The notes beneath the pieces were generated by a model. It was not told the origin of the DNA. It worked only from the letters and a program-made list of their open reading frames with translations, and searched no databases. From NCBI GenBank assembly GCA_964565075.1, contig CAZMCK010000002.1, positions 27,603 to 91,602 on the forward strand: DNA of 64,000 nucleotides. The letters are read 5' to 3'. Source of the stretch: an uncultured Dehalococcoidaceae bacterium (GTDB taxonomy: Bacteria; Chloroflexota; Dehalococcoidia; UBA2979). Positions 3,182 through 54,810 of this stretch are shown one piece after another (position 1 is the first letter of the stretch; each line of letters starts with the position of its first letter). The position numbers and the translations under genes were made by a program.

Positions 3182-3451
3182 CTAGCCGTCGGTCCCGGTC
3201 TGCTCGGTGACGACGCGGCGGAAGTGGGTCACGCGTTCGTCGTCCTCGTCGATGACCAGCTCCTCGTCCTCGACGGTCTCGCGCAGCCAGGTGATGACCG
3301 CGGCAGCGCCGCCGTAGGCGACGAACCACTCGAGGCCCTGGAGCAGGGCGAGCAGGCCGACGCGTTCGCTGCCGCGGTAGCGCACCGTGCCCCATGCGAT
3401 ACCGCCGGCGAGTGCGGCGAGGGCGAACCCGAGTTGCTGCTTGTCGCTCAT
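3182..3451 (-). CDS. small hypothetical membrane protein (89 aa)
   Basis: Two hydrophobic segments. GGAGG ribosome-binding site ahead of the ATG at 3451. Confidence 0.4.
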   Translation of the reverse strand: MSDKQQLGFALAALAGGIAWGTVRYRGSERVGLLALLQGLEWFVAYGGAAAVITWLRETVEDEELVIDEDDERVTHFRRVVTEQTGTDG

Positions 3452-3591
3452 CGCGCGCCTCCTTCGTGTGTTCGGTGGGTCTTGGCATCATCGTACGTGG
3501 CGCGGGCACGCGGGCATAGCCAGCGGCTCAGAGGGCCGGGGATGCAGGCAACAGCAGTGGTTCGGGGCTCTCTGGTGGCGTCTCCCCCGTA

Positions 3592-3608
3592 GTTCTGACA
3601 CACTGCGC
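3592..3608 (+). promoter_or_regulatory. conserved motif GTTCTGACACAC-N-GCGCC, copy 1 (upstream of the Mo-hydroxylase operon)
   Basis: 17 of 18 positions identical to a second copy at 33337..33354. Both are preceded by a TTCGG(GG)CTCTC element. Confidence 0.5.
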
Positions 3609-3700
3609 CGGAAATCGGGAACCTTATAGGCGTGGGGTGGCGTACCCTGCGCGATGGCGCGCGCCCGAAGACGTGCGTCGCAGTCGGGAAGGGGAAGCGT

Positions 3701-4594
3701 TTGCAGGCACTAACGGTGGAACGCCCCGCGACGATCCAGGAGGCGGTGCAGCTGCTCAACGACGGCGGCGACACTGCGAAGGTGCTGGCCGGCGGAACGG
3801 ACGTGATCGTCATCGCGCGTTCCCGGCGCCGCACCATCGACTTGCTGGTCGACGTCAAGCGGATTCCAGAACTGACGGCGATCGAGTGGGACCCGGGTTC
3901 GGGCCTCACCATCGGCGCCGCAACGCCGTGCTACGAGCTCTACGGCGACGCGGACATCAACGCGAACTACCCGGCCATCATCGACTCTGCGTCGCTGATC
4001 GGCGGGACGGGCATCCAGGGCCGCGCGAGCTTCGGCGGCAACCTCTGCAACTCCTCGCCCTCGGGCGACACGATCCCGACACAGATCGTGCTCGAAGGGG
4101 TCGCGAACATCATCGGCCCCGGCGGCGAGCGGCAGGTGCCCGTGGAGGACTTCTGCACGGGCCCGGGCCGGAACGTGCTGGAGCAGGGCGAGTTCCTGGT
4201 CTCGCTGCACTTCCCGGCGCCCGAGGCGGGCAGCGGTGCGCGCTTCCTGCGCTTCATCCCGCGTAACGAGATGGACATCGCGGTCTGCAACGCGGCCTCG
4301 GCCGTGAAGATGGACGGCGACACCGTGCGCTGGGCGCGCGTATCCCTCGGCGCCGTCGCGCCGGTGCCCCTGCTGGTGCAGGGCGCCGCCGACGCGCTCG
4401 TGGGCAACCCGCTCAACGACGAGACGATCGCGGCAGCGGCCGCAGCCTCGCGCGAGGCTGCCAGCCCGATCGACGACATGCGCGGTTCGATCCGGCAGCG
4501 CAAGCACCTCTCTGCGGTGCTGACCACGCGCACGCTGGAGCAGGCCGGCGCACGTGCACGTGGGGAGCACGTCCCCTCGGTGGGAGGGCACTAA
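3701..4594 (+). CDS. molybdenum hydroxylase FAD-binding medium subunit (CoxM/XdhB family)
   Basis: ORF 3632..4594. The likely TTG start at 3701 follows GGGAAGGGGA and gives MQALTVERPATIQEAV..., matching CoxM N-termini. FAD-binding motifs AGGTD and GGN.CN are present. The GTG at 3632 is an alternative start. Confidence 0.85.
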   Translation: MQALTVERPATIQEAVQLLNDGGDTAKVLAGGTDVIVIARSRRRTIDLLVDVKRIPELTAIEWDPGSGLTIGAATPCYELYGDADINANYPAIIDSASLIGGTGIQGRASFGGNLCNSSPSGDTIPTQIVLEGVANIIGPGGERQVPVEDFCTGPGRNVLEQGEFLVSLHFPAPEAGSGARFLRFIPRNEMDIAVCNAASAVKMDGDTVRWARVSLGAVAPVPLLVQGAADALVGNPLNDETIAAAAAASREAASPIDDMRGSIRQRKHLSAVLTTRTLEQAGARARGEHVPSVGGH

Positions 4595-4595
4595 G

Positions 4596-5066
4596 TTGGC
4601 CAACCAGATCATCTCCGCCACCATCAACGGTGAGCCCATGGAGTTCCTCGCCGACACCCGCGACAGCCTCCTCGAGGCGCTGCGCGAGCGCATCGGCCTC
4701 ACGGGGACCAAGGAAGGCTGTAACGACGGCAACTGCGGCGCGTGCTCGGTCATCATGGACGGCCGGCTCGTGAACTCCTGCCTCGTCATGGCCGCCGAGG
4801 CCGACGGCTCGGACGTCACGACCGTCGAGGGCCTCGCCACCGAGGACGGGCTGATCCCGCTGCAGCAGACCTTCCTGGAGGAGGCGGCCCTGCAGTGCGG
4901 CATCTGCACGCCGGGCTTCCTCGTCGCCTCCAAGGCGCTGCTCGACGCCAACCCGAACCCGACAGAGTTCGAGGCGCGGTACTGGCTCGCCGGCAACCTC
5001 TGCCGGTGCACGGGCTACGACAAGATCATCCGCGCGGTCCTCAGGGCTGCTGAAGTCGAGGCCTAG
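4596..5066 (+). CDS. molybdenum hydroxylase [2Fe-2S] small subunit (CoxS family)
   Basis: TTG at 4596, 1 nt after the coxM-like stop, with a GGGAGGG ribosome-binding site. Product MANQIISATINGEP.. carries cysteine motifs CNDGNCGACSV and CGICTPG...CRCTGY. Confidence 0.9.
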   Translation: MANQIISATINGEPMEFLADTRDSLLEALRERIGLTGTKEGCNDGNCGACSVIMDGRLVNSCLVMAAEADGSDVTTVEGLATEDGLIPLQQTFLEEAALQCGICTPGFLVASKALLDANPNPTEFEARYWLAGNLCRCTGYDKIIRAVLRAAEVEA

Positions 5067-5076
5067 GCCTCGCATC

Positions 5077-5102
5077 GGACGGCCGCCGCGAGGCGGCCGT
5101 CC
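5077..5102 (+). promoter_or_regulatory. intra-operon stem-loop between the small and large Mo-hydroxylase subunit genes
   Basis: GGACGGCCGCC-GCGA-GGCGGCCGTCC: an 11-bp perfect stem with a GNRA-type loop, 11 nt after the small-subunit stop and 33 nt before the large-subunit GTG. Confidence 0.5.
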
Positions 5103-5134
5103 TGCATCCAACCACACGCACGAAGGAGACCTGA

Positions 5135-7423
5135 GTGGTTACCACTGACAAGCCCGAGTACAAGGTCGTCGGCACGCGCCCGATCCGCCCGGACGGGGCG
5201 GACAAGGTCACCGGCCGCGCCGAGTACGGGGGCGACTACCACGCAGCAAACCTGCTGCACGGCCAGGTGCTGCGCAGCCCGCACGCCCACGCCATCATCA
5301 AGAGCATCGACACCTCGAAGGCCGAGGCCCTCGATGGCGTGAAGTCCGTCATCACCAACGCCGACTTCCCGCAGCCCAGCGACGAGCTCGTCGACATGGG
5401 CGAGGGCGCGGCGACCAGCGCACGCTGGCTGCTGGACAACGTCCTCGCCGGTGAGAAGGCGCTCTACCGCGGCCACGCGGTCGCCGCCGTGGCGGCCACC
5501 GACGCGCACATCGCCGAGGACGCGATCGGCCTCATCGAGGTCGAGTACGAAGTGCTCGAGCCGGTGCTGGACGTGATCGAGGCGATGGACGAGAACGCGC
5601 CGCTGCTGCACGACTTCCTCCGCACCGAGGAGGTCGGGGGCATGTTCGACCCGCCGTCCGGGATCGGCGACCAGCCGACCAACGTCGCGAAGCACGCCCG
5701 TTTCGAGGCAGGCGACCTGGACGCCGGGTTCGCCGAGGCCGACGTCGTCATCGAGCGCGAGTTCCGCACCTCGATGGCGCACCAGGGCTACATCGAGCCG
5801 CACAACGGCAGCGCGTTCTACAACCGCGACGGCCACCTCACGGTGTGGACGAGCACACAGGGCTCGTTCGGCATCCGCGAGATGTGCGCCACGCTCATGG
5901 ACATGCCGCTGTCCAGCGTGACCTGCGTCCCGATGGAGATCGGCGGCGGCTTCGGCGGGAAGATCCCCGTCTACCTCGAGCCGCTCGCGGCGCTGATGTC
6001 GAAGCAGACCGGCCGCCCGGTCAAGCTCATCATGACGCGCCAGGCGGTCCTCGAGGCCACGGGTCCGACGTCCGGCACCGTCGTGCGCGCCAAGATCGGC
6101 GCGAAGAGCGACGGCACGCTCACGGCGGCCGACGTGTGGATGGCGTTCGAGGCCGGGGGCTACCCGGGCTCGCCGTTCACCGCCGGCATGATGTGCGCGC
6201 TCGCCCCGTACGAGTTCCCGAACGCCGTGGTCGAGGGCTACGACGTGGTCGTCAACAAGCCCAAGGTCTCGGCCTACCGCGCCCCGGGCGCTCCGCAGGC
6301 TGAGTTCGCCGTCGAGTCCGTCATGGACGAGATCGCGGATCGGCTGGAGATGGACCCGATGGACCTGCGTTCCATGAACGCCACCAGCGAGGGCTCGCGC
6401 CGTGTCGACGGCGCCGTCTTCGGGGTCATCGGCAACGAAGAGGTCATGGAGGTGGTCAAGAACAGCGACCACTACCGCTCCGAGCTGCAGGGTGAGAACC
6501 GCGGCCGTGGCGTCGCCATGGGCTTCTGGTTCAACGTCGGGTTCGAGTCGAGCGCCTACGCCAACGTGAACCCCGACGGCACGGTCAGCCTCGTGCTCGG
6601 CTCGGTCGACATCGGCGGTTCGCGCGCTTCGCTCTCGATGCAGATGGCGGAGTCGCTCGGCATCGCCGGCGACGACGTGAAGCCGCACGTGGTCGACACC
6701 GACTCGATTGGCTTCACCGGCGTCACCGGTGGCAGCCGCACGACCTTCGCCGGTGGCTGGGCCTGCCACGAGGCCGCGATGGACATCCGTCGCCAGATGG
6801 AGGAGCGCGCCGCCCAGATCTGGGAGGCCGACCGGGACTCCGTCGCCTACGGTGACGACGGCGTGATCCGCGGCCCCGGGGACGACCAGAGCTTCACGTT
6901 CGCCGAGCTGGCTGCCCAGCTCCCGCTGACCGGCGGCCTGATCCAGGGCCAGGCGGACGTCTCGCCCATGGAGTCCGGCCCCGCCTTCGCCGGCCACATC
7001 GTGGACGTCGAGGTGGACCCGGAGACCGGCAAGGTCGACGTGCTCCGCTACACGGCCGTCCAGGATGTCGGCACTGCGGTCCACCCCTCGTACGTCGAGG
7101 GGCAGATGCAGGGTGGCGTCGCGCAGGGCGTCGGCATGGCGCTGACGGAGGAGTACTTCTACTCCGACGACGGCACGATGCTGAACTCGAGCCTGCTGGA
7201 CTACCGCATGCCCACCGCGCTGGACCTGCCGATGATCGAGACGGTCCTCGTGGAAGTGCCGAACCCCGGCTCGCCGTACGGCGTCCGCGGCGTCGGCGAG
7301 GTGCCGATCGTGCCGCCGCTCGCGGCGGTCGCGAACGCGGTGTCCGCGGCGCTCGGCCAGCGCATGACCACGCTGCCGCTCACCCCGCGGCAGATCCTCG
7401 AGGAGACTGTCCTCGACGAGTAG
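5135..7423 (+). CDS. molybdenum hydroxylase large (molybdopterin-binding) subunit, paralog 1
   Basis: 762 aa. GAAGGAGA ribosome-binding site 8 nt before the GTG. Xanthine dehydrogenase / CoxL-family domains. The active-site loop reads AYRAPGAP. Confidence 0.9.
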   Translation: MVTTDKPEYKVVGTRPIRPDGADKVTGRAEYGGDYHAANLLHGQVLRSPHAHAIIKSIDTSKAEALDGVKSVITNADFPQPSDELVDMGEGAATSARWLLDNVLAGEKALYRGHAVAAVAATDAHIAEDAIGLIEVEYEVLEPVLDVIEAMDENAPLLHDFLRTEEVGGMFDPPSGIGDQPTNVAKHARFEAGDLDAGFAEADVVIEREFRTSMAHQGYIEPHNGSAFYNRDGHLTVWTSTQGSFGIREMCATLMDMPLSSVTCVPMEIGGGFGGKIPVYLEPLAALMSKQTGRPVKLIMTRQAVLEATGPTSGTVVRAKIGAKSDGTLTAADVWMAFEAGGYPGSPFTAGMMCALAPYEFPNAVVEGYDVVVNKPKVSAYRAPGAPQAEFAVESVMDEIADRLEMDPMDLRSMNATSEGSRRVDGAVFGVIGNEEVMEVVKNSDHYRSELQGENRGRGVAMGFWFNVGFESSAYANVNPDGTVSLVLGSVDIGGSRASLSMQMAESLGIAGDDVKPHVVDTDSIGFTGVTGGSRTTFAGGWACHEAAMDIRRQMEERAAQIWEADRDSVAYGDDGVIRGPGDDQSFTFAELAAQLPLTGGLIQGQADVSPMESGPAFAGHIVDVEVDPETGKVDVLRYTAVQDVGTAVHPSYVEGQMQGGVAQGVGMALTEEYFYSDDGTMLNSSLLDYRMPTALDLPMIETVLVEVPNPGSPYGVRGVGEVPIVPPLAAVANAVSAALGQRMTTLPLTPRQILEETVLDE

Positions 7424-7458
7424 CACTCCGCGCGTGAGCGCGAGCGACACGCTACAAA

Positions 7459-7490
7459 CACTGGCGGCGCCCAACCGGGCGCCGCCAGTG
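7459..7490 (+). terminator. perfect 14-bp-stem hairpin between the two large-subunit paralogs
   Basis: CACTGGCGGCGCCC-AACC-GGGCGCCGCCAGTG, 36 nt after the stop of paralog 1. Confidence 0.55.
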
Positions 7491-7558
7491 CTATGTGTGG
7501 GGCTTCCTCGCGGTGTCGCGGCGCGGCATACAGGGCGGGCACGCTCGGCCCTGCGGTA

Positions 7559-7564
7559 TACAAT
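7559..7564 (+). promoter_or_regulatory. TACAATCG -10-like box 39 nt upstream of large-subunit paralog 2 (internal promoter candidate)
   Basis: GGTATACAATCGCGCC. The same octamer precedes both double-domain CoA-transferase genes at the same distance. Confidence 0.4.
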
Positions 7565-7602
7565 CGCGCCGAAGCCGATCCCCGCGCCCTGGGAGGTTCG
7601 CC

Positions 7603-9897
7603 GTGGTCACCACCGAGAAGCCCGAGTACCGCGTCGTCGGAACGAGGCCGCTCCGGCCGGACGGCGCCGACAAGGTGACCGGACGCGCGCAGTACGGCGT
7701 CGACGTCTCGCTGCCCGGCATGCTATACGGCCGCGTGCTGCGCAGCCCCCACGCGCACGCTCGCATTCTCAGCGTCGACACCTCGAAGGCCGAGGCGCTC
7801 GACGGCGTCCGCGCCGTCGCCACCTTCGCCGACCTGCCGATCGATGACGAGGAGACCGTCGTCGACATCGGCGAGGGCGCGGCCGAGGGGCGCTGGATGG
7901 CGCGGCTCGTCTTCGCCGACGACAAGGCGCTCTTCAAGGGCCATGCCGTGGCCGCCGTCTGCGCCACCGATCCCCACATCGCCGAGGACGCCCTCGAACT
8001 GATCGAGGTCGAGTACGAGCCACTGCCGGTCGTCCTCGATGCGCGCGAGTCCATGGACGAGAACGCGCCGCTGCTGCACCCCGACCTGCTCACCGAGGAA
8101 GTCGCGGGCTTCGGCGTCGGCGACGTCTCCACGGCGCGGCCGTCGAACATCGGCAAGCACTGCGAGTTCGCAATCGGTGACGTGGACGCCGGGTTCGAGG
8201 AGGCCGAGATCATCCTCGAGCGCGAGTTCGAGACCTCGGCGTACCACCAGGGCTACATCGAGGCGCAGAACGGCGCGGCGATGTGGAACCCGGACGGCGA
8301 GCTGACCGTGTGGGTGAGCAGCCAGGGCCCGTTCGTGGTCCGCGCGCAGCTGGCGCAGCTGCTCGACATGCCGCTCAGCAAGGTGAAGGTCGTGCCGATG
8401 GAGATCGGCGGCGGCTTCGGCGGCAAGATCCCCGTCTACATGGAGCCGATGGCCGCGATCATGTCGAAGAAGACCGGTCGCCCGGTCAAGATGTACATGA
8501 CGCGGCAGGAGGTCCTCGAGTCCACCGGCCCCACGCCGGGCTCGTGGGTGCGGGCGAAGATCGGCGCGAAGCGCGACGGCACGCTCGTCGCCGCCGACGT
8601 GGCGCTGGCGTTCGAGTCGGGCGGGTTCCCGGGCTCGGCGTTCGTGGCCGGTGCGCGCTGTGCACTCGGGCCGTACGACATCCCGAACATGCACGTCGAG
8701 GGCTGGGACGTCGTCGTCAACAAGCCGAAGGTCGCCGCGTACCGCGCGCCCGGCGCCCCGCAGACGGAATTCGCCGTCGAGTCGCTGATGGACGAGCTCG
8801 CCGAGGTGCTTGAGCGCGACCCGATGGAGCTGCGCTACCAGAACGCCGCCGGCCAGGGCACGCGTCTCGTGGACGGCACGGCGCTCGGCGTGGTCGGCAA
8901 CACGCAGGTCATGGACGCGATCACGCAGAGCGACCACTACCGCTCCGAGCTGCAGGGCGAGAACCGCGGCCGCGGCGTCGCGATGGGCTTCTGGGGCAAC
9001 GGCGGCATGGAGACGAGCGCGCTCGCGAACGTCAACGCCGACGGCACCGTGAGCCTCGTCGTCGGCACCGTCGACATCGGCGGCCTGCGTGCGACGCACG
9101 CGATGCAGCTCGCCGAGACGCTCGGCCTCTCATACGAGGAGGTGCACCCGAAGGTCGTCGACACAGACAGCGTCGGGATGACCTCGGTGACAGGCGGGAG
9201 CCGCAGCACGTTCGCCGGCGGCTGGGCGATGCACGAGGTCGGCATGGACCTCCGCCGCCAGCTCGAGGCGCGCGCCGCGCAGATCTGGGAGGTCGACGCC
9301 GACGACGTGACGTACGGCGACGACGCCGTCATCCGCGGCCCCGCCGATGGCGACGAAGCGCGCAGCATGACGTTCGGTGAGCTGGCCGGCCAGCTCGCGA
9401 TGACCGGCGGGATGATCCAGGGCAGCGCCTCGGTGCGGCCGGAGACCGTCGGGCCGACCTTCGCGGGCCACATCGTGGACGTCGAGGTGGACCCGGAGAC
9501 CGGCAAGGTCGACGTGCTCCGCTACACGGCCGTGCAGGACGTGGGTACCGCCATCCACCCCTCGTACGTCGAGGGGCAGATCCAGGGCGGCGCGCTACAG
9601 GGTGTGGGCATGGCGCTGACCGAGGAGTACTTCTACGACGACGACGGCGTGATGCGGAACTCGAGCCTGCTCGACTACCGCATGCCGACGGCGCTCGACA
9701 CGCCGATGATCGACGCGGTGCTCGTCGAGGTGCCGAACCCCGGCCACCCCTACGGGGTGCGAGGGGTCGGCGAGGTGCCGATCGTGCCGCCGCTGGCGGC
9801 CGTCGCCAACGCGATCCACGATGCGGTGGGCGTGCGCATGGCGAAGCTGCCGGCCACGCCGCGCGCAATCCTCGAGGAGTTGGAGCCGGACGCCTAG
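7603..9897 (+). CDS. molybdenum hydroxylase large subunit, paralog 2 (tandem duplicate)
   Basis: Internal GTG of ORF 7495..9897, preceded by GGAGG, giving MVTTEKPEYRVVGTRP.. in parallel with paralog 1 (MVTTDKPEYKVVGTRP..). 764 aa, same AYRAPGAP loop. Near-identical C-terminal blocks (AGHIVDVEVDPETGKVDVLRYTAVQDVGTA). Confidence 0.9.
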   Translation: MVTTEKPEYRVVGTRPLRPDGADKVTGRAQYGVDVSLPGMLYGRVLRSPHAHARILSVDTSKAEALDGVRAVATFADLPIDDEETVVDIGEGAAEGRWMARLVFADDKALFKGHAVAAVCATDPHIAEDALELIEVEYEPLPVVLDARESMDENAPLLHPDLLTEEVAGFGVGDVSTARPSNIGKHCEFAIGDVDAGFEEAEIILEREFETSAYHQGYIEAQNGAAMWNPDGELTVWVSSQGPFVVRAQLAQLLDMPLSKVKVVPMEIGGGFGGKIPVYMEPMAAIMSKKTGRPVKMYMTRQEVLESTGPTPGSWVRAKIGAKRDGTLVAADVALAFESGGFPGSAFVAGARCALGPYDIPNMHVEGWDVVVNKPKVAAYRAPGAPQTEFAVESLMDELAEVLERDPMELRYQNAAGQGTRLVDGTALGVVGNTQVMDAITQSDHYRSELQGENRGRGVAMGFWGNGGMETSALANVNADGTVSLVVGTVDIGGLRATHAMQLAETLGLSYEEVHPKVVDTDSVGMTSVTGGSRSTFAGGWAMHEVGMDLRRQLEARAAQIWEVDADDVTYGDDAVIRGPADGDEARSMTFGELAGQLAMTGGMIQGSASVRPETVGPTFAGHIVDVEVDPETGKVDVLRYTAVQDVGTAIHPSYVEGQIQGGALQGVGMALTEEYFYDDDGVMRNSSLLDYRMPTALDTPMIDAVLVEVPNPGHPYGVRGVGEVPIVPPLAAVANAIHDAVGVRMAKLPATPRAILEELEPDA

Positions 9898-9927: not shown

Positions 9928-10191
9928 ATGGCGAAAGTCTTCGTACCCGCGCTGATGCGCAAGCTGTCCAACGAGGAGCCGGTGGTCGACATACCCGGGA
10001 ACACGCTGCGCGAGGTGGTCAACAACCTCGACGATGCGTACCCGGGCATGAAGGACCTGATCATCGAGAACGGCCGCGTGCGGCCAGGCCTCGCGCTCGC
10101 CGTCGACGGTGTCATGTCGGCGACGGGGCTGATGGCGAAGGTGCCCGAGGACGGCGAGGTGCACATCCTGCCCGCCATCGGGGGCGGGTAG
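9928..10191 (+). CDS. MoaD/ThiS/CysO-family sulfur-carrier protein (C-terminal GG)
   Basis: 87 aa ending ...ILPAIGGG. Overall resemblance to CysO/MoaD beta-grasp carriers. GGGAGG ribosome-binding site. Confidence 0.7.
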   Translation: MAKVFVPALMRKLSNEEPVVDIPGNTLREVVNNLDDAYPGMKDLIIENGRVRPGLALAVDGVMSATGLMAKVPEDGEVHILPAIGGG

Positions 10192-10443
10192 ACCGCCGCT
10201 CCCCCGACAACCCGAGGGGCCTCGATCCGGGCCTGTGACGCTGATCGGTGCGCCTCCCAGTGACGCCGCCGGGTCGTGAGCGCGACTCGCGGTCGTGTTA
10301 TGTGCCCCTCGTAGCGCACCGCTCATGGCGTGGGCCGTTCTGCTAGACTGCGCCGCGACAGGAGCCGCTCCGCGGGCAGGTGCCCCGCGTTGCGGGGAAT
10401 CGCGGGCGGCTACCCGCACGAGGCACGACGCAGGAGGTGCAGA

Positions 10444-11301
10444 TTGACGCAAGACAGATACGGCGGAAACGTCGACGCCCCGATCGAGCGGACCCCGCTG
10501 CCGGACTGGCCGTACGAGGAACTCCTCTACGAGACCATCGACGACGGGCGCATCGCGCTGATCACCATGAACCGCCCGGAGCGCATGAACTCCAGCGACC
10601 CCGAGATGGGGCAGCGCTGGTACGACGCCTGGACGACGTTCGCCAACGACGACGAGCAGTGGGTCGCGATTGTCACCGGCGCCGGTGACCGTGCCTTCTC
10701 GGCCGGCCAGGACCTCAAGATCCGCGCCGAGCTGGAGCAGGAGGGCGGCGACGCCCCGTACCAGCGGCGGGCCCCGAACGTCACGCCCATCGGCGAGAAG
10801 CTCGGCTGCTGGAAGCCGACCATCGCGGCCATCAACGGCTTCGCGATCGCCGGTGGCTGGGCGACGGCGCAGAACTGCACGTTCCGCATCGCCGAAGAGC
10901 ACGCGCAGATGAACATCGCCGAGGCGCGGTGGAACCAGGGCGCGGGCTTCGTGGCGTGGCTGCCGCGGCTCATGCACACGGCGCACGCCCTTGAGGTCTG
11001 CATCATGGGCGACCGGCGCGTCAGCGCGCAGCGCGCCTACGAGATGGGCTTCGTCAACAAGGTGGTGCCGAAGGGCCAGTCGGTCGAGGAGGCCGTGGAC
11101 TGGGCGCGCACCATCACGCGGATGGCTCCGCGCGCGGTGCAGAACTTCCACCAGCTGATCTACCAGTGCTGGAACCAGAGCATCCCGGAGTCCCAGCAGA
11201 CTGCGGCGGCGCTCGAGTTCAACCTCCGCGGCATGGAGGACTCGCTCGAGGGCCCGCTGGCCTTCGCCGAGAAGCGGCCGGCGGTCTTCAAGAACCGCTA
11301 G
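10444..11301 (+). CDS. enoyl-CoA hydratase/isomerase family protein (crotonase paralog 1)
   Basis: TTG at 10444, 7 nt after AGGAGG, within ORF 10330..11301. Crotonase motifs ITMNRPERMN, TGAGDRAFSAGQDL and INGFAIAGG. The C-terminus ...EGPLAFAEKR is shared with the other three paralogs. Confidence 0.85.
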   Translation: MTQDRYGGNVDAPIERTPLPDWPYEELLYETIDDGRIALITMNRPERMNSSDPEMGQRWYDAWTTFANDDEQWVAIVTGAGDRAFSAGQDLKIRAELEQEGGDAPYQRRAPNVTPIGEKLGCWKPTIAAINGFAIAGGWATAQNCTFRIAEEHAQMNIAEARWNQGAGFVAWLPRLMHTAHALEVCIMGDRRVSAQRAYEMGFVNKVVPKGQSVEEAVDWARTITRMAPRAVQNFHQLIYQCWNQSIPESQQTAAALEFNLRGMEDSLEGPLAFAEKRPAVFKNR

Positions 11302-11391: not shown

Positions 11392-12006
11392 CTAGTCGCC
11401 GAGGATGGTGTCGTAGCCGAGCGAGCGGATCTCCTCGACGTACTCGGCGCGCCACCCGGCGGCGGGGATGCGGCGGCGCAGGCTGCGGAACTCGGCGTGG
11501 TAGCGGAGGTACTCCTCCTCCAGGCGCCGACGCCACGCCGCCTCCTCGCGGGCCGCGTCCGGCGCGACCTCCTCGAAGGGGAGCTCGAACTGGTCCTCGG
11601 TGAGGTCGTACTCGTCACGCCAGTACTCGGCGAGGTAGTCGAGCGAGTCTTCCAGGTCGCGCCGGCAGTCCAGCATGTAGGTCTCGAGGAGTTGCCCGGC
11701 GTCGGCGAGGGTGCCGCGCAGGCGCTCGCTGCGCGCGCAGTCAACGCAGAGCGTGGTGAGCTTGCGCGCCTCGCAGGCGTCACCGCGCGGGCAGTTCTGG
11801 TGGCGGGGGGCAAACGGGGAGAGCGACGGCTTTCGCGAGTACCCGACGACGAGTGCATCGCAGTCGGCCTCACAGCGCGGGCAGGTGAGGCGACGCGCGA
11901 AGATCTGGTTGATCGCGTTCTCCCAGTCGATCTGCACGCCGCACGCTCCGATCAGTGGATGCTGCTCCGGCCGAGCGACGTTCCGTGGGTGGCCGCGAGC
12001 CGTCAA
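11392..12006 (-). CDS. hypothetical Cys-rich protein (putative zinc-binding)
   Basis: 204-aa ORF. Cysteine clusters CPRCEADC, CPRGDAC and CVDCARSE, followed by an acidic C-terminal half. The start codon is uncertain. Confidence 0.45.
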   Translation of the reverse strand: MTARGHPRNVARPEQHPLIGACGVQIDWENAINQIFARRLTCPRCEADCDALVVGYSRKPSLSPFAPRHQNCPRGDACEARKLTTLCVDCARSERLRGTLADAGQLLETYMLDCRRDLEDSLDYLAEYWRDEYDLTEDQFELPFEEVAPDAAREEAAWRRRLEEEYLRYHAEFRSLRRRIPAAGWRAEYVEEIRSLGYDTILGD

Positions 12007-12061: not shown

Positions 12062-12592
12062 CTACGCCCGGACCGCCTCGATCCACCCCGGAGCCAGGTC
12101 GCGGCTGTAGCGGCCGCTCTGCCCCGGCATCTCCTCGATCTCCACCTCGATGCGCGTGAGGTTGCCGTGCTCACCCGCCGCCAGCGAGGCGAGCACGCGC
12201 CCGGCGACCCACTCCGCGAGCAGCTCTGCCGTGCTGTTCTCGATGGGCAGTGCGACGACGTCGCTCGCCGGGAAGCGGTAATCGCGGTCGCCGAAGCCGA
12301 CCGTCCAGCCGGCAGCGTCCTCGGTGATGTCGAGGAGGCGCGAGTCATGCTGGAGCAGGAAACGGTGGTCCAGCTCCTCGCACGCCTCGCGGACGGCGCG
12401 CTTGAGCACGCTGAAGTCGATGACCCACCGGTCGTCGGTGAGGGCGCCGTCGACACGGCAGCTTGCGATGTAGTTGTGCCCGTGGAGCGGCTCGAGGTCG
12501 TCGCCGAGCGTCGCCATGTGCGCTGCGGCGAAGCGCAGCCGGACGCCCTGGACGGTGACGGAGCGGGAGACGTCGAGGATGTCGTCAGTCAT
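12062..12592 (-). CDS. 6-pyruvoyl-tetrahydropterin synthase / QueD-family protein
   Basis: Internal ATG (MTDDILDV..) of ORF 12062..12850. PTPS motifs FAAAHM and LHGHNY plus a conserved Cys. GAGGA ribosome-binding site. Confidence 0.7.
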   Translation of the reverse strand: MTDDILDVSRSVTVQGVRLRFAAAHMATLGDDLEPLHGHNYIASCRVDGALTDDRWVIDFSVLKRAVREACEELDHRFLLQHDSRLLDITEDAAGWTVGFGDRDYRFPASDVVALPIENSTAELLAEWVAGRVLASLAAGEHGNLTRIEVEIEEMPGQSGRYSRDLAPGWIEAVRA

Positions 12593-12633
12593 GCGGTCCT
12601 CGGTTGCTGTGTCCAGCCCGGCGCTACATAACA

Positions 12634-12659
12634 GAATGGCAGCCGTTCGGCTGCCATTC
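12634..12659. terminator. perfect 12-bp-stem hairpin downstream of the ferredoxin-oxidoreductase operon
   Basis: GAATGGCAGCCG-TT-CGGCTGCCATTC, immediately adjacent to the CTACATAACAG repeat. Confidence 0.55.
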
Positions 12660-20774: not shown

Positions 20775-20871
20775 GCGCATACTGAACGGGTAGTTATGTC
20801 CCGTCCCTGCCCTCCGGGTTCCACCCGGGGGGTGCGGGCGCGTGGCGACGATGAGGGTGAGGACGGGCGCG

Positions 20872-21366
20872 GTGGCGAAGCGCTCCTCGAAGAAGAAGCA
20901 GCCCGAGCTGCGCGAGGGTGGCACCATCGCGACGAACCGTCGCGCCCGCTACGACTACAGCATCGAGGGGACCTACGAGGCCGGCCTGGTCCTCACCGGC
21001 TCCGAGATCAAGTCGATACGCTCCGGCCGCGCCGACATCGCCGAAGGCTTCGCGCGCTTCGAAGGCGGCGAGCTGTGGCTGCATAACGTGCACATCGCCC
21101 CCTACGCGCCCGCCGGGGTGAACCATGAGCCGCTGCGGACCCGCAAGCTGCTCCTGCACCGCAACGAGCTCGAGCGCCTGGAGCGGGCGCTGCGCGAGCA
21201 GCCCGGGATGACCATCGTCCCGCTGCGGCTCTACCTGGCGCGCGGACTGGCGAAGGTCGAGATCGGCCTCGCGCGTGGCCGCCGACGCTACGACAAGCGC
21301 CAGGCGATCGCGAAGCGCGAGGCGGAACGGACCATGCAGCGGGCGATGCGACGGGACGCGCGCTAG
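20872..21366 (+). CDS. smpB: SsrA-binding protein SmpB
   Basis: ORF 20842..21366. The GTG at 20872 (8 nt after GAGGA) yields a 164-aa product of canonical SmpB length. Motifs IATNRRARYDY and TRKLLLH. Starts at 20842, 20851 or 20857 remain possible. Confidence 0.85.
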   Translation: MAKRSSKKKQPELREGGTIATNRRARYDYSIEGTYEAGLVLTGSEIKSIRSGRADIAEGFARFEGGELWLHNVHIAPYAPAGVNHEPLRTRKLLLHRNELERLERALREQPGMTIVPLRLYLARGLAKVEIGLARGRRRYDKRQAIAKREAERTMQRAMRRDAR

Positions 21367-21409: not shown

Positions 21410-21766
21410 TGGGGACGAAAGGGGTCGACAGCGGTTAACGGACACGGTTTGCGGGTCGAGGCGCCACCAACCTCGTAAAACAGGTGGCACCTTCATAACA
21501 GGCGATAACGAACTCGCCCTCGCCGCTTAGACAGCGGTGACGTTGTCCCCGGCTCTCGCCTGGCGAGCCGGGAGACAGCGCCGAAATGCCGGGCTGCAAT
21601 CGCGGGCGCGCGTCACAGGCCTCGCGACCAAGACTACTGCGACTGGCCGGCAGCCTCCCTCGTCAGCGCAGGGATGCCGGTGAGAACCCGCCGCTGACTA
21701 CGCCCGTAGCAGATCCGTGACGAAGGCTTGCTGGACGGGGAGTTCAATTCTCCCCCGTCTCCACCA
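21410..21766 (+). ncRNA. ssrA: tmRNA (ssrA)
   Basis: 5' GGGGACGAAAGGGGTCGAC pairs with 3' ...CGTCTCCACCA to form a 7-bp acceptor stem. T-arm GGACGGGGAGTTCAATTCTCCCCCGTC. Internal tag reading frame ...GGC GAT AAC GAA CTC GCC CTC GCC GCT TAG (..NELALAA*). Lies directly after smpB. Confidence 0.85.
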
Positions 21767-29551: not shown

Positions 29552-29872
29552 CTAATGGATGGCCTGCTCGACGGCCTCGGTCAGCCAGGCGTTGAGGCTC
29601 TTGCCCCGGGCGCGCGCGGTCTCGGTGGCGGCGCGATGGAGGTCCGGACCGATCCTCAGCGGGATGTTGCCGGAGTACGCCTTGTCAGGGGTGCGCCCGC
29701 GCTCGGCGCATACCTGCAGGTACTCGTCCACCGACGCGGCGAACGCCTCGCGCAACTCCGGCACCGACGTCCCCTGGAACGTGATCACGTCGCGGGTCCC
29801 CACCACCTCGCCGTGGAACAGCTCGGCGTCGTCGTCGAACACGACAGTGGCGCGGTATCCCTGGTACTCCAT
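29552..29872 (-). CDS. hicB: type II antitoxin HicB
   Basis: 106 aa, HicB fold with a C-terminal RHH-like segment. Directly downstream of the hicA-like gene. Confidence 0.75.
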   Translation of the reverse strand: MEYQGYRATVVFDDDAELFHGEVVGTRDVITFQGTSVPELREAFAASVDEYLQVCAERGRTPDKAYSGNIPLRIGPDLHRAATETARARGKSLNAWLTEAVEQAIH

Positions 29873-29888
29873 GACGACTCTCTACCCC

Positions 29889-33300: not shown

Positions 33301-33336
33301 CGGCCCCAGCCGGGTGCGGCCTTCGGCTCTCCCAGG

Positions 33337-33354
33337 GTTCTGACACACGGCGCC
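33337..33354 (+). promoter_or_regulatory. conserved motif GTTCTGACACAC-N-GCGCC, copy 2 (upstream of the SSF symporter)
   Basis: See copy 1. Lies 52-61 nt upstream of the symporter start. Confidence 0.5.
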
Positions 33355-33405
33355 TCCATCGCTAACCTCATTCGTGATTGAGACGACGTAGCCCCGTCGA
33401 CGGGA

Positions 33406-34911
33406 GTGGTCCTGGTGTTCAGCCCCGTGGTCGTTGCGGTCTTCGTCGGCTACTTCCTCGCGCTGGTCGGCATCGCCATCGTGCGGGCGCGGCGCATGAA
33501 CGCCATGTCGGACTACGTGCTCGGCGGGCGGCGCATGAGCAGCCTCACCTCGGGCCTCAGCGCGAGCGTCTCGACGACGAGCGGATGGACGATGCTGGCG
33601 CTGCCGGCGCTCGCCTTCACCGGGGGCGCGAACATCCTCTGGCTCGTCGGCTTCCTCGCCGTGGGTGTCTGGCTCAACTGGACGCTGGTGGCGAAGCGGC
33701 TGCGACGCTACACGATTGCCGCCGAGGACTCTCTGACCGTGCCCGAGTTCTTCGAGCGCCGCTTCGCGGACGGCAGCGGGGCGGTGCGCGCCGTGGCGGC
33801 AGTGCTCACGATCTTCTTCATCGTCTTCTACACCAACTCGGGCCTCATCGCGGGCGCCGAGCTGCTCGGCTCGGTGTTCGAGATCGACCTCAATCCCGGG
33901 ATCTGGATCACGCTCTTCGCCGTCGCCTCGTACACGTTCATCGGCGGCTTCCTCGCCGTGTCGCGGACGGACGTGTTCCAGGCCGTGCTGATGCTGGCGG
34001 GCTTCATCATCATCCCGCTCACGCTGTTGTTCCTCGCCGACGACCCGTTCGGCGAGGTGGGCGACCAGCCGGGGTTCTTCAACCCCTTCACCGACCCACA
34101 GGGCGAGGTCGTGACGCCGGTGTATCTCATCGGCCTCGCAGGCTGGGGTCTCGGCGCCTTCGGTTCTCAGCGCGTGCTGCAGCGCTTCATGGCGGTGGAG
34201 AGCGAGGCCAAGATCGACGAGAGCCGCAACATCTCCGCGGCGTGGATCATCGGCATCTACGCGCTGAGCTTCCTGCTGGGGCTGCTGGCCCATCCCGCGC
34301 TCGAGGCGGCGGGGATCGAGACGACGGACCCCGAGCAGGTCTACTTCGCGGTCGTGGACCACTTCTTCCCGGCGTTGATCGGCGCGCTGCTGCTCTCGGC
34401 GGTCATCGCTGCCGTCATGAGCACGGCCGACTCCCAGCTGCTGCTCGCCTCGGCGGTCGCGTCGAACGACCTGCCGTACGTTCGACGCATCAGCGCGGCC
34501 CTCGACACGCGACGCCAGGTCTGGCTGGGCCGCGCCTGGCTGGTCGTCGTCGGCCTCTTCTCCGGCGTGCTCACGGTCGCGTTCCCTGACTCGATCCTCA
34601 ACCTCGTGGCGTACGCGTGGGGCGGGATGGGCGCGGCCTTCGGGCCGGTAGTGCTGCTGGCGCTCTACTGGCGGCGGTTCAACGCGGCGGGGGCGCTGGC
34701 GGGCATGCTCGCGGGGTTCGGAGTGGCCACGCTCTGGCAGTTCGGCCTCGAGGGCGGCCCGCAGGGCGTCTTCGACATCATGCCCGCCTCGCCAGGGTGC
34801 ATCGCCGGAACCGCCGCGGCGATCGTCGTGACGCTCCGGACCGCGCCGCCGGCCGCGCACGTCCTCGCCACGTTCGACGAGGTCGCAGGGCGCGCAGCGG
34901 CCCGCCCCTGA
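33406..34911 (+). CDS. sodium:solute symporter family (SSF) transporter
   Basis: 501 aa with about 13 TM helices, PutP/SSF family. Start may instead be the GTG at 33415. Confidence 0.85.
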   Translation: MVLVFSPVVVAVFVGYFLALVGIAIVRARRMNAMSDYVLGGRRMSSLTSGLSASVSTTSGWTMLALPALAFTGGANILWLVGFLAVGVWLNWTLVAKRLRRYTIAAEDSLTVPEFFERRFADGSGAVRAVAAVLTIFFIVFYTNSGLIAGAELLGSVFEIDLNPGIWITLFAVASYTFIGGFLAVSRTDVFQAVLMLAGFIIIPLTLLFLADDPFGEVGDQPGFFNPFTDPQGEVVTPVYLIGLAGWGLGAFGSQRVLQRFMAVESEAKIDESRNISAAWIIGIYALSFLLGLLAHPALEAAGIETTDPEQVYFAVVDHFFPALIGALLLSAVIAAVMSTADSQLLLASAVASNDLPYVRRISAALDTRRQVWLGRAWLVVVGLFSGVLTVAFPDSILNLVAYAWGGMGAAFGPVVLLALYWRRFNAAGALAGMLAGFGVATLWQFGLEGGPQGVFDIMPASPGCIAGTAAAIVVTLRTAPPAAHVLATFDEVAGRAAARP

Positions 34912-42239: not shown

Positions 42240-42644
42240 TCAGGTCCGCGCGTCGATGCGGTCCATCTCGCCGGGCCACTCGAGGAGCCGCTCGTCGGCG
42301 GTCAGCAGCCGGCAGTCGTCGAGCGTGAGCGCCGTGGCGGCGATGATCCGGTCGGCGGGGTCGCCGTGCATGTCGGGGATCTCGCCCGCGAGCGTGGCGA
42401 TCTCAGCGGTCACCCCGACCTCTCCCAGGCCGGTGGCGCGCAGGCCCGCTCGCCAGCCCAGCACGTCGCGCGTCACCCCCACGCGGCCCTTGCGCTGCAG
42501 CATCGCGACTTCCCAGAACGTAATGGTTGAGACCGCGGCCTCGCCGTCCGGCCAGGCCCGATCGAGCAATGCGCGAGCCCGCCGCCCCAGGTCACGGGTG
42601 TCGAGATGCATCCAGACCAGCACATGGGTATCGAGCAGGATCAC
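42240..42644 (-). CDS. vapC: PIN-domain toxin (VapC-like)
   Basis: 134 aa starting MILLDTHVLVW, PIN fold. Confidence 0.8.
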   Translation of the reverse strand: MILLDTHVLVWMHLDTRDLGRRARALLDRAWPDGEAAVSTITFWEVAMLQRKGRVGVTRDVLGWRAGLRATGLGEVGVTAEIATLAGEIPDMHGDPADRIIAATALTLDDCRLLTADERLLEWPGEMDRIDART

Positions 42645-42653
42645 GGGCGCCGG

Positions 42654-45371: not shown

Positions 45372-46649
45372 CTAGCCGAACGCGCCAGCCTCGCGCAGCG
45401 AGGCGATCTCCTCCGGTGTGAGGCCGTGCTCCGCCAGTACCTCGTCGGTGTGGCCCCCGAGGGGCGGCGACGGCCGGTCCGTGCCCGTCGGAGCGTTCGT
45501 CATGCGCAGGATCGGGCCGACCAGCTGTTCGGGGCCCGTGAGGGGGTGGTCGATGTCCACCATGTAGCCCATCGCCTGCACCTGCGGGTCTTCCGACATC
45601 TCCTCGGGGAAGTTCACCTTGGTTGCCGGCGCCCCCTGCGCGTCGAGGAGCTCGATCCACTCGTCCATGGTCTTGGTGCGGTACAGCTGCCTGACGCGCT
45701 CCTGGAACGCCTGCGCCTTCGCCTCCCACTCCGGGTCGAGGGCGTCGAAGTCCGGGTCCTCCATGGGATCCTCGCCGGTCAGTCCCAGCGCCTCGCGGAT
45801 CTGCGCCTGGTTGCGAGGGGTGAGCGCACCGACGACGATCGCGCCGTCCTGCACCACGTAGGTGCCGTAGTACGTCAGGAACGCCGTCGCGATCGCGCGC
45901 TGGCCCTCGTGGATGTCCATCAGCTCCTGGTAGTTGGCGCCTGCCTGCTGCGCGGCGGTGAGGGCCTCCATCATCGGGTCCCGCGTGATTGCGTCCTGCA
46001 CGGGCACTCGCCCGACGGAGGCGCCGAGCAGCGACAGCGCCGAGTTGAGCAGCGAGGTCTGGATGAACTCGCCCTGCCCCGTCAGCTCGCGGCGGAACAG
46101 CGCGGCGCACACGCCCATCGCCATTGCCAGTCCCGTGCTCATGTCGCCGATCGCGATCGACATCATCTGCGGCGCGCCGTGCTCGTCGAGCTTGTGGTTG
46201 TTCGCCATCAGGCCCGAGTAGCCCTGCGAGACCACGTCGGAGCCGGAGCGCTCGGCGCTCGGCCCCTCGGTGCCGAAGCCGGTGCTGTCGACGTAGACGA
46301 GGTCCGGGCGGAACTGCCGCAGCGTGTCGTAGTCCACCTTCAGGCGCTTCGAGACGCCGGGGCGGGCGTTGATGATGAAGACGTCGTAGTCCTTGATGAT
46401 GCGGTGCACCAGCCCCTGCGCGTCGGGGCTCTGGAGGTTGAGCACCAGCCCCCGCTTCCCGCGGTTCACGACGTGGAAGAACTTCGACTCGTTCGGGACG
46501 ACGGCGCCCAGGATGCGGGTGCTGTCGCCGTCCGGTGACTCGACCTTGAGGACGTCGGCCCCGAGGTCGGCGAGCATCATCCCGCCGTACGGCGCCGCCA
46601 GGATCTGTGACACCTCGAACACCTTGATGCCTTCAAGTGGACCACCCAC
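45372..46649 (-). CDS. CoA-transferase family III (CaiB/BaiF) protein, single-domain
   Basis: ORF 45372..46832. The start is placed at the GTG for V62 (8 nt after GGGGGG), since a strong hairpin upstream (46672..46704) must precede the gene. N-terminal GPLEGIKVFEVSQILAAPYGGMMLADLGADVLKVE. Confidence 0.8.
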   Translation of the reverse strand: MGGPLEGIKVFEVSQILAAPYGGMMLADLGADVLKVESPDGDSTRILGAVVPNESKFFHVVNRGKRGLVLNLQSPDAQGLVHRIIKDYDVFIINARPGVSKRLKVDYDTLRQFRPDLVYVDSTGFGTEGPSAERSGSDVVSQGYSGLMANNHKLDEHGAPQMMSIAIGDMSTGLAMAMGVCAALFRRELTGQGEFIQTSLLNSALSLLGASVGRVPVQDAITRDPMMEALTAAQQAGANYQELMDIHEGQRAIATAFLTYYGTYVVQDGAIVVGALTPRNQAQIREALGLTGEDPMEDPDFDALDPEWEAKAQAFQERVRQLYRTKTMDEWIELLDAQGAPATKVNFPEEMSEDPQVQAMGYMVDIDHPLTGPEQLVGPILRMTNAPTGTDRPSPPLGGHTDEVLAEHGLTPEEIASLREAGAFG

Positions 46650-46671
46650 GATGCGCACCCCCCGGATTGCA

Positions 46672-46704
46672 AGCGGGGCGGGTGCTTGAGCACCCGCCCC
46701 GTCG
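46672..46704. terminator. 13-bp-stem hairpin after the rhodanese gene
   Basis: GCGGGGCGGGTGC-TTGA-GCACCCGCCCCG(C). Confidence 0.5.
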
Positions 46705-46729
46705 AGCGTGTGGCTTCGGCCGTATCGTA

Positions 46730-47908
46730 CTAGGACTCGATGGGCGTGTCTGTGCGGTTGCCCCACTCGGTCCAGGAGCCATCGTAGACCTTCACGTTCT
46801 CGTAGCCGAGCAGATCGCTCAGCACGAACCACGTGTGGGTCGCACGCACGGCCGTCTGGCAGAGCGTGTAGATGGTCTTGCCGCCCACAACGCCCTCGCC
46901 CTCGTAGAGCTCGCGGAGCTCATCGGCGGGGAGGAACGTGCCGTCCTCGGCCAGCGCGCGGCCCCAGTCGACGTTGACCGACTCGGGGATGTGGCCGCCG
47001 CGGTCAGCACGGACGTCACGCCCGGCGTACTCCTCGGCCGACCTGGCGTCGCAGACCAGCGACGAGGGGTCCTCGATCTGATCCACGATCTCCTGCCAGC
47101 CGGCGATGATCGCCTCGTTCGGAGCCGCGCTGAACGCGTACTCCGCAGCCGTGGGCGACGGCACGTCGGTGCTCACCTCGCGGCCCTCTGACTGCCAGAG
47201 CGGGAAGTCGCCGTCGAGCAGCCGCACATCCGCGTGCCCGTAGACCGCGAGCACCCACACGGCGCGCGAAGCCCAGATCGAGCCCCTGGCGTCGTAGAAG
47301 ACCAGCGTGTGGTCGGGCGTCACGCCGAATGATGCGAGCGATGCCGCCACTTCCTCGGCGGGCGGGATCAGGCCCGCGACGCCGTCGATCTCCTTCTGGA
47401 AGACCGCACCGGCCTGCATCCGGACCGCGCCCGGGATGTGGCCCTCGCCGTACTGTTCCTCGTTGCGGAGGTCGAACAGCAGCACCCTGTCGTTGTCGAG
47501 GTTGTCCTCGATCCACTGGGTGGTCACGAGGCGGCTCGTGTTCGCGTAGCCCCGGTCCTCGAGGCCCGTAGCCTGGGCGACCCCGGCGTCGTCCGCGTCA
47601 CCCTCCTCGGAGGTGGTGGCGGCGGTGTCGTCCGCGTCGTCGTCCTCCTCGGTGGCGGCGGCGGTGTCATCCGCGTCGTCGTCCTCCTCGGTGGCGGCGG
47701 CCGTGTCGGTGGCGTCGTCGGAGTCGTCGGTGGCCGCGGCCTGCTGCGTGGCGGGCGTCGCCTGCGTGGTCGTCGCCGCGTCGTCGTCATCGTCGTCGCC
47801 GCACGCGATGAGCAGCGCCGAGGAGGCGATCACCAGCAGCGCAAGCAGCGCGGCACCGCGTCCGAGCAGGCCCCAGGCGGGCCTCGTTCGTACTTCTGTT
47901 GCCATCAT
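46730..47908 (-). CDS. secreted two-domain rhodanese (thiosulfate/3-mercaptopyruvate sulfurtransferase) lipoprotein
   Basis: 392 aa with lipobox LLIACG, an acidic linker containing a tandem TAAATEEDDDADD repeat, and two rhodanese domains with the catalytic Cys (CQTAVRA). Confidence 0.8.
   Translation of the reverse strand: MMATEVRTRPAWGLLGRGAALLALLVIASSALLIACGDDDDDDAATTTQATPATQQAAATDDSDDATDTAAATEEDDDADDTAAATEEDDDADDTAATTSEEGDADDAGVAQATGLEDRGYANTSRLVTTQWIEDNLDNDRVLLFDLRNEEQYGEGHIPGAVRMQAGAVFQKEIDGVAGLIPPAEEVAASLASFGVTPDHTLVFYDARGSIWASRAVWVLAVYGHADVRLLDGDFPLWQSEGREVSTDVPSPTAAEYAFSAAPNEAIIAGWQEIVDQIEDPSSLVCDARSAEEYAGRDVRADRGGHIPESVNVDWGRALAEDGTFLPADELRELYEGEGVVGGKTIYTLCQTAVRATHTWFVLSDLLGYENVKVYDGSWTEWGNRTDTPIES
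47620..47700. repeat. roughly 39-bp tandem direct repeat (x2) inside the rhodanese gene
   Basis: A GTCGTCGTCCTCCTCGGTGGCGGCGGC(G/C)GTGTC unit repeated on the + strand, encoding the duplicated acidic linker TAAATEEDDDADD. Confidence 0.6.
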
Positions 47909-47965
47909 GCTTCCCTTCGGGCCGGGACGCGTCCGCGCGCCGGCACTATCGAGGGCGGTGCGGGG

Positions 47966-52266: not shown

Positions 52267-52293
52267 CGGGAAGAGCATCAGCGGGAGGGACTC

Positions 52294-54726: not shown

Positions 54727-54759
54727 CCGCCGATCGTGCAGGGGCCTCTCCGACCCGCC

Positions 54760-54765: not shown

Positions 54766-54810
54766 CGGTTCCCCCAACACCGGGAGGGAGCAACACGGCG
54801 GGAGGGACTC

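Follow-up and report, generated by a model that had tools for sequence, protein, structure and literature searches.

The question raised by this locus is whether a short sequence that stands upstream of a molybdenum (Mo) hydroxylase operon and again upstream of a sodium:solute symporter gene is a shared control element, and whether it ties the transporter to the substrate of the enzyme. The DNA analysed (the window) is a stretch of 64,000 nucleotides from a contig of an uncultured Dehalococcoidaceae bacterium. Two near-identical 18-mers had been reported in it, and GTTCTGACACACTGCGCC (S1) and GTTCTGACACACGGCGCC (S2) are indeed in the same orientation and equal at 17 of 18 positions; the span given for the second copy was right, whereas the first copy ends at 3609, not at 3608. 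They lie, as had been claimed, upstream of the two start codons, S1 ending 91 nt before TTG 3701 of the coxM-like gene and S2 ending 51 or 60 nt before GTG 33406 or GTG 33415 of the symporter gene. TTG 3701 is the best-fitting coxM start (Pfam FAD_binding_5 match, and a ribosome-binding site AAGGGGAAG ahead of it); GTG 33415 is used by the public gene calls and yields a protein of 498 aa, with GTG 33406 as the alternative. A related TTCGG(GG)CTCTC element, said to precede each copy (3561-3572 and 33322-33331), did not hold up: it lies 19 nt from the motif in one case and 5 nt in the other, its CTCTC part changes in relatives, and the left flanks of the two copies align with a score of 7 against a shuffle mean of 6.8, which is not significant.

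The original prediction also held that such a recurrence was unlikely by chance, and the counts bear this out. With up to three mismatches the 18-mer has three matches in the 64-kb window (shuffle mean 0.41), and the pattern TTCTG-N7-GCGCC has exactly four (shuffle mean 0.22); none of 100 shuffles reached three and four matches, respectively. The third copy (S3) emerged when three mismatches were allowed, and the fourth (S4) came from a consensus scan, on the minus strand; the family is described by the pattern forms (A/G)TTCTG-N7-GCGCC and GTTCTGnCACACTG. TTCTG alone occurs 43 times in the window, five times in the intergenic set, and four of these five are S1 to S4. All four TTCTG-N7-GCGCC matches are intergenic (about 12% of the window), co-oriented with the downstream gene and located 27-91 nt before start codons, and S1, S3 and S4 fall inside one 9-kb cluster. 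The positions invariant among the four sites are.TTCTG..A....GCGCC, and all share the register (A/G)TTC-TG-n-hexamer-GCGCC, the hexamers being CACACT (S1), CACACG (S2), TAGACT (S3) and TATGTA (S4). The motif, these statistics, the conservation described below, the register and the geometry were read directly from the sequences. Coordinates are given in Table 1.

Table 1. Motif copies, promoter-like elements and associated genes, in window coordinates.
Feature	Position	Strand	Description
S1	3592..3609	+	GTTCTGACACACTGCGCC; upstream of the coxM-coxS-coxL1-coxL2-thiS-like operon; TG at 3596-3597, -10-like CACACT at 3599-3604
S2	33337..33354	+	GTTCTGACACACGGCGCC; upstream of PutP-like sodium:solute symporter (33415-34911)
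S3	10337..10354	+	GTTCTGCTAGACTGCGCC; 89 nt before TTG 10444 of enoyl-CoA hydratase; contains extended -10 TGcTAGACT
S4	12620..12637	-	ATTCTGTTATGTAGCGCC; 27 nt before ATG 12592 of PTPS/QueD-like gene
TGGCGT island	3576..3581	+	exactly 10 nt before S1, i.e. 17 nt before CACACT
Second -10-like hexamer at coxM	3643..3648	+	TACCCT, then GCGCG; 51 nt after the start of S1
Symporter -10-like hexamer	33363..33368	+	TAACCT, then conserved tcgtgattgagacg
Mo hydroxylase operon	3701..9897	+	Pfam; NCBIfam matches all below equivalog cut-off
CoxM-like FAD subunit	3701-4594	+	Pfam FAD_binding_5
2Fe-2S subunit	4554-5066 (ORF)	+	Pfam
Two paralogous molybdopterin large subunits	5135-7423 and 7495-9897	+	Pfam
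ThiS/MoaD-like gene	9928-10191	+	after the Mo hydroxylase large subunits
Enoyl-CoA hydratase (crotonase)	10444-11301	+	TTG start; S3 lies between ThiS/MoaD-like gene and hydratase
PTPS/QueD-like gene	12062-12592	-	followed by Cys-rich orf204
orf204	11392-12006	-	Cys-rich (CPRC...C, CPRGDAC, CVDC)

S1 lies within a divergent intergenic region of 249 nt, bordered on the opposite side by the gene for a small membrane protein (3182-3451, minus strand) and by an FMN-reductase-like gene. The large-subunit genes of the operon stand in tandem and share 74-87% nucleotide identity in blocks; in the relatives L135 and L136 (comparison loci, designated by L numbers, are metagenome and ENA contigs) they are separated by an extra ORF of 307 aa without a Pfam match. 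The orf204 gene looks co-transcribed with the PTPS-like gene and is conserved in relatives as a 181-aa protein; it gave no Pfam, NCBIfam or PDB match, and its single-sequence AlphaFold model (pLDDT 54) was uninformative. The symporter is of PutP-like type, its NCBIfam score of 388 bits falling short of the cut-off of 515, and the close homologues of the symporter and of the hydratase are, by their NCBI names, proteins of Chloroflexi or Dehalococcoidia MAGs. Elsewhere in the window a full-length tmRNA (Rfam RF00023, 134 bits) is located at 21411-21766 (+), directly downstream of smpB (20794-21366). Two tandem family III CoA-transferase genes (52267-54726 and 54727-57243; about 820 aa each, about 90% identical in blocks) were found, with PF02515 matches in two stretches of the one member scanned, and a third such gene lies at 45372-46919 (-). 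A rhodanese-domain ORF (46730-47965, -) holds three to four tandem 39-nt repeats at 47584-47705. Toxin-antitoxin-type genes are present at 29552-29881 (-), at 42240-42653 (-) and upstream of 32671 (HicB, PIN-domain and, as called in L001, HigB/HTH_3).

Upstream of coxM the motif is conserved far beyond the flanking sequence among orthologues, and because of this the proposal of a shared promoter or operator names the right kind of explanation for an element that is non-random, intergenic and not a repeat. The S1 18-mer is identical in L042, L019, L135 and L136. It reads GTTCTGACAAACTGCCTC in the 95% relatives L052-L054, GTTCTGACACACTGCGGG in L049, GTTATGCCACACTGCGCG in L056 (65% identity; TATG there matches TRTG) and GTTCTGCCACACTGGCGT in L050 (70% identity), the last within a lower-GC intergenic region that is otherwise unalignable. 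The core GTT(C/A)TGnCACACTG keeps 13-14 of its 14 positions down to 65-70% protein identity, L050 included; the 3' GCGCC is changed in distant orthologues (GCGGG, GGCGT, GCGCG, GCCTC). The TGGCGT island ahead of S1 has the same spacing in eight sequences (the window, L042, L019, L135, L136, L052 and L050, and L049 with TGGCGC), the 10-nt spacer being fixed in length and variable in sequence. Judged by this geometry the island could occupy a -35 position or form the second half of a protein-binding site; it equals TTGACA at two of six positions, and no comparable conserved -35-like element was found at S3 or S4 in the relatives aligned.

The second hexamer at coxM, TACCCT, is a probable downstream promoter (P2). 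A counterpart, TATCCT or TATGCT (TA(T/C)(G/C)CT, then GCGCG), is found in orthologues including the motif-less L051, L055, L061, L069 and L085. The distance from the start of the motif to the P2 hexamer is 48-51 nt in six lineages and about 24-26 nt in L055, whose degenerate motif reads GTACCACACAG. At 54-58% identity the coxM loci carry GGTCTG(A/T)TATACT, which is close to the extended -10 consensus; it stands about 93 nt ahead of coxM in L066 (the window motif lies at 109 nt) and 154-272 nt ahead in the others. In L076, L083, L084 and L078 (coxM 54-55%) this sequence, 150-270 nt upstream, is followed by a G+C-rich hairpin (with a T-run in L084), an arrangement that may represent a promoter followed by a structured leader or an attenuator. 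The coxM leader of the window holds a hairpin of its own at 3650-3682 (+), GGCGCGCG-N8-CGYGYGTC, which is kept in six relatives with one-sided, G-U-compatible substitutions and no compensatory pairs; as a candidate functional RNA structure it is weak. In L053 (JGIcombinedJ30088_10025344) the region comprising the small membrane gene, the promoter and the coxM 5' end occurs twice, at 583-850 and 2283-2550, 1.7 kb apart, so that the contig either joins two strains as a chimera or has a genuine local duplication.

S1 and S3 are both intact in relatives at about 90% identity. S3 reads ATTCTGCTAGACTGCGCC in L135-L137, although insertions of GYD or HAD genes precede the hydratase gene there; in L136 and L137 the neighbour ahead of that gene is divergent, and the motif is still 107 nt upstream. 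In L138 (84%, the gene lying among IS elements) the sequence is ATCTGCTAGACTGCCCC, with the hexamer and the next G (TAGACTG) intact and the flanks decayed; in L143-L145 (87%, another IS-rich context) only TATACTG is left at this place, and the non-syntenic hydratase locus of L142 (80%) has no S3 counterpart. That hydratase orthologues in IS-rich contexts keep exactly the hexamer and the G would favour a promoter. At S4, L135-L137 retain ATTCTGTTATGTAG and the hairpin ahead of it, with GCGCC changed to AATCC. That hairpin, which follows korB (12660-12634, minus strand; a perfect 11-bp stem, ggaatggcagcc gaac ggctgccattc), is terminator-like and overlaps the first 4 nt of S4; in L135-L137 its stems are kept and its loop differs.

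The symporter copy behaves differently. In L141, whose symporter is 97% identical, S2 reads GTTCTGACGCTCAGCGCC, which keeps 15 of 18 positions with all three changes central, and between the window and L141 S2 is no better conserved than its flanks. No S2 motif is present upstream of the symporter in L132 (88%), although the hexamer TAATCT and the leader tcgtgattgagacg are kept there, nor in L133 (84%) or L134 (74%). L141 and L132 both read TAATCT where the window has TAACCT, and CTGACA (33340-33345), inside S2, lies 17 nt before TAACCT, which is the -35 position. S1 and S2 align over about 110 nt with a score of 26 (shuffle mean 9.8, maximum 18); the right flank alone, in which AACCT is paired with AACCT and CGTA(G)CCC with CGTACCC, scores 10 against a mean of 6.4, a score reached in 44 of 2000 shuffles (p about 0.02). 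This similarity beyond the motif suggests that the region ahead of the symporter gene was copied from the coxM promoter region and has since diverged. The symporter copy is a recent, poorly conserved addition, which may act differently there or be a relic. Checking relatives for the motif, as had been advised, showed it to be conserved upstream of coxM but labile upstream of the symporter gene. The suggestion that the symporter imports the substrate of the Mo hydroxylase is weak, because only the window strain has this copy of the motif, and the 97% relative a decayed form of it. The stronger partners of S1 are S3, at the adjacent hydratase, and S4, at the PTPS-like operon, neither of which had been part of the original prediction.

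Judged from its sequence, the motif is a real, conserved, orientation-specific and fairly ordinary cis-regulatory element, and we predict, with about even confidence, that it forms the common core of a small group of similar promoters. Known classes of this kind are the extended -10 ('TGn') sigma-70-type promoters and the 'TRTG' -16 region of Gram-positive promoters. Like these, the motif has TG, one base and a hexamer whose second base is A (and whose sixth is T at S1 and S3), a T placed two bases ahead of the TG, a -35 that is weak or missing, and a strictly co-oriented position 27-91 nt upstream of starts. TG, one base and the hexamer are present at all four sites and in the S1 and S3 orthologues except L143-L145. 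The hexamer has A at position 2 at four of four sites; T at position 6 is found at S1 and S3 but not at S2 (CACACG) or S4 (TATGTA), and the hexamer is non-canonical at three of four sites (C at -12 in S1; G in S2 and A in S4 at -7). The -7 position of a -10 hexamer is normally a near-invariant T, and a -35 element is optional for extended -10 promoters. No other TAnnnT was found between motif and start codon at S3 or S4, and no promoter-like hexamer upstream of the motif in the intergenic space examined at these two sites. Since the PTPS-like gene follows a terminator-like hairpin, its own promoter is needed within 45 nt. The hydratase gene, too, requires a promoter of its own. The motif also appears to be a floating module relative to P2 (+48 to +51 nt, and about +24 to +26 in L055), which an independent promoter would tolerate better than a phase-dependent activator site would. 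Promoters of the same style precede the S41 protease gene (TGGTAGACT) and ribBA (TGATACCCT) in the window; a simple sigma-70 consensus scan and a terminator scan of the coxM and symporter regions gave no match. At the loci 42198 (-), 61433 (-), 58979 (+) and 15292 (-) the hexamers TAGAAT, TATAGT, TAGATT and TTAGAT stand only 3-6 nt before the annotated start codons, and such TAnnnT sequences suggest that leaderless transcripts are common in this organism.

Under the promoter interpretation the motif would span the contacts of the RNA polymerase holoenzyme from about -18 to -2. TTCTG would supply a 'TnTG' extended -10 element; after a single base would come the -10 hexamer, namely CACACT for coxM, TAGACT for the hydratase gene and TATGTA for the PTPS-like operon; and GCGCC would be a G+C-rich discriminator. 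The transcription starts that we infer would lie 2-3 nt past the motif and give leaders of about 90 nt for coxM, 87 nt for the hydratase gene and 25 nt for the PTPS-like operon. The coxM gene would be served by P1 (the motif, with TGGCGT at the -35 position) upstream of the widely conserved P2 (TAnnCT). The copy at the symporter would have arisen by duplication of the coxM promoter region and diverged since; its hexamer (CACACG) would be impaired, and its CTGACA would by now act as the -35 of the symporter's own TAACCT promoter. The flanks TTC... and GCGCC and the A at position 9 exceed the housekeeping consensus, which implies that these promoters would be tuned together by one factor or by a common kinetic design; the factor could be a sigma factor variant or a protein over the -10 region. 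The motif differs from extended -10 promoters in its hexamers (CACACT or CACACG at two sites, TATGTA at one), in the C that replaces the R of TRTG, and in flanks (TTC, GCGCC) that are identical across unrelated genes. CACAC, moreover, is kept at coxM even in the lower-GC L050, which would count against a plain housekeeping promoter, where drift towards TATACT is expected, and points to a sequence-specific reader. Taken together, these departures suggest a reader more specific than the housekeeping holoenzyme.

Such a reader could be a dedicated transcription factor encoded outside the window, with the motif as its operator; this is the main alternative, possible though rather doubtful. The site would then be asymmetric and bipartite, two 5-bp elements with 7 bp between them, about one helical turn apart, read by a monomer with two helix-turn-helix units (e.g. 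of MarA or AraC type). At coxM its place would be about -60 to -45 relative to the TAnnCT promoter, in the remaining three units it would cover a -35 or -10 element, and all four units would form one substrate-responsive regulon. The depth of conservation of the coxM core is more than RNA polymerase contacts need, the window-invariant positions flank the hexamer, and the distance to TAnnCT holds in six lineages across unrelated intervening sequence, all of which speaks for an operator, as do the overlap of S2 with the symporter -35 and the loss of the site in close relatives, which is typical turnover for a peripheral regulon member. The missing T at -7 (S2, S4), the conservation of C at -12 and of all of CACAC at coxM, and the nine shared flank positions keep a dedicated factor, be it a regulator with an asymmetric operator or a specialised sigma factor, a substantial rival. 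Against it, the supposed second half-site GCGCC is the least conserved part in distant orthologues and the 'spacer' the most conserved, hydratase orthologues keep the -10-like hexamer alone, the spacing to TAnnCT is shifted by about 25 nt in L055, and the orientation towards the gene is the same at all sites, wherever they lie with respect to the -10. There is also no dyad symmetry: when the 18-mer was inspected together with its flanks at every site, the only pairing seen was GT...AC bounding the first 12 bases, or a 4-bp GGCG/CGCC involving the upstream flank of S1, and no symmetric positions are conserved among sites, as a classical dimeric operator would have. Pfam revealed no regulator gene in the window, nor in some 100 kb of related loci; Pfam and NCBIfam searches of essentially all window ORFs gave no DNA-binding regulator except toxin-antitoxin HTH proteins. 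The MarA/SoxS/Rob 'marbox' (AraC/XylS family) is an asymmetric bipartite activator box read by monomeric two-HTH proteins. The motif resembles it in length (about 17-20 bp), in being non-palindromic with two short elements about 7 bp apart, and in its dependence on orientation and its placement over the -35 or further upstream; it differs in having no sequence resemblance, no AraC-family gene in the window or related loci, and a second element (GCGCC) that is lost in distant orthologues while the 'spacer' is kept. Among other regulators, the operators of KstR, LexA, GlnR, PhoP, MtrA, CRP/GlxR and DasR were compared with the motif by their consensus sequences, as were sigma-54 (-24/-12) and ECF-type (-35/-10) promoters, and none fits in both sequence and spacing.

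The remaining explanations have less in their favour. Common descent without shared regulation is improbable: by this account the region ahead of the symporter gene would have been derived from the coxM promoter region by duplication or gene conversion in the ancestor of the window strain and L141 and have diverged since, and S3 and S4 would resemble it merely as extended -10 promoters in a G+C-rich genome. The alignment of S1 with S2 over about 110 nt, the excess similarity of their right flanks, and an S2 that is no better kept than its surroundings and absent from the 88% relative all fit such copying, yet S3 and S4 share with S1 and S2 the TTC before TG and the GCGCC after the hexamer (nine positions beyond the promoter consensus), four matches against 0.22 expected are hard to obtain by chance, and S1 and S3 persist in the 90% relatives. 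That the motif acts in RNA, as a 5'-UTR element (a protein or small-RNA site, or part of a riboswitch) of transcripts starting further upstream, would agree with its fixed orientation 27-91 nt before start codons, and a position inside the 5'-UTR was a caveat of the original prediction itself, but this reading is very improbable. S4 begins within the terminator-like hairpin, so an upstream start is unlikely there, and S3 and S4 lack a promoter-like hexamer further upstream in the space examined. No common secondary structure is apparent around the motifs, and Rfam gave no match over them: at the gathering threshold the whole window yielded the tmRNA only, and at E values up to 5 the three leaders yielded three unrelated matches (E at least 1.1, far below gathering), none over the motif. 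Least credible of all, to the point of being negligible, is a fragment of a REP- or MITE-like dispersed repeat present in many unrelated intergenic regions, an outcome that the original prediction had named as counting against it. Like REP/BIME repeats the motif is short, intergenic and recurrent within one genome; unlike them it is non-palindromic, always upstream of a gene and co-oriented with it, and kept at orthologous positions. A scan of 185,579 species genomes (one per species) for GTTCTGACACACNGCGCC gave 46 single matches, mostly in unrelated taxa, where about 70 are expected by chance (our own calculation, with 17 bases specified and both strands of 596 Gb counted). Among the 46 are the coxM upstream regions of two complete chromosomes of Dehalococcoidia MAGs, OZ244720.1 (3.3 Mb) and OZ242017.1 (2.7 Mb), neither of which has a further match to the scanned 18-mer; this single match per related chromosome, upstream of coxM, is not the distribution of a dispersed repeat. 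The symporter gene in both has no motif copy at exact-18-mer stringency. The window has four copies in 64 kb, about 100 kb of related loci hold no extra ones, and a repeat search of the window found no such family. A literature search with the motif sequence returned unrelated primer matches only.

To our knowledge, almost nothing is known experimentally about promoters and regulons of uncultured Dehalococcoidia and other Chloroflexota. In the present case the best-supported grouping, by comparison of sequences, comprises the Mo hydroxylase operon, the adjacent crotonase gene and the PTPS-like/orf204 operon, since their sites are conserved together in the relatives at about 90% identity. No enzyme of this group scores above an NCBIfam equivalog cut-off. 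Co-regulation, as we infer it for these units, is plausible for the Mo hydroxylase cluster with its neighbours, but the link to the symporter is weak and unstable across relatives. In a more far-reaching version, which is tentative and rather unlikely to hold, the factor would be an alternative sigma factor or an asymmetric-site regulator that coordinates an uncharacterised catabolic module in a Dehalococcoidia lineage, with the PutP-like importer recently recruited in some strains by copying of the promoter region, pointing to the substrate. Such a module, suggested just as tentatively, would consist of the Mo hydroxylase with its two different large subunits, the ThiS-like protein, the crotonase, and the PTPS-like enzyme with its Cys-rich partner.

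A conserved and easily searched signal that ties the Mo hydroxylase to the crotonase and the PTPS-like operon gives a handle for defining the pathway, and the motif provides specific positions for start-site mapping in metatranscriptomes. The idea of the symporter as a clue to the substrate is tempered by the fact that the link exists only in a very narrow lineage; if both the dedicated factor and the promoter copying were true, the transporter would point to the substrate of the pathway.
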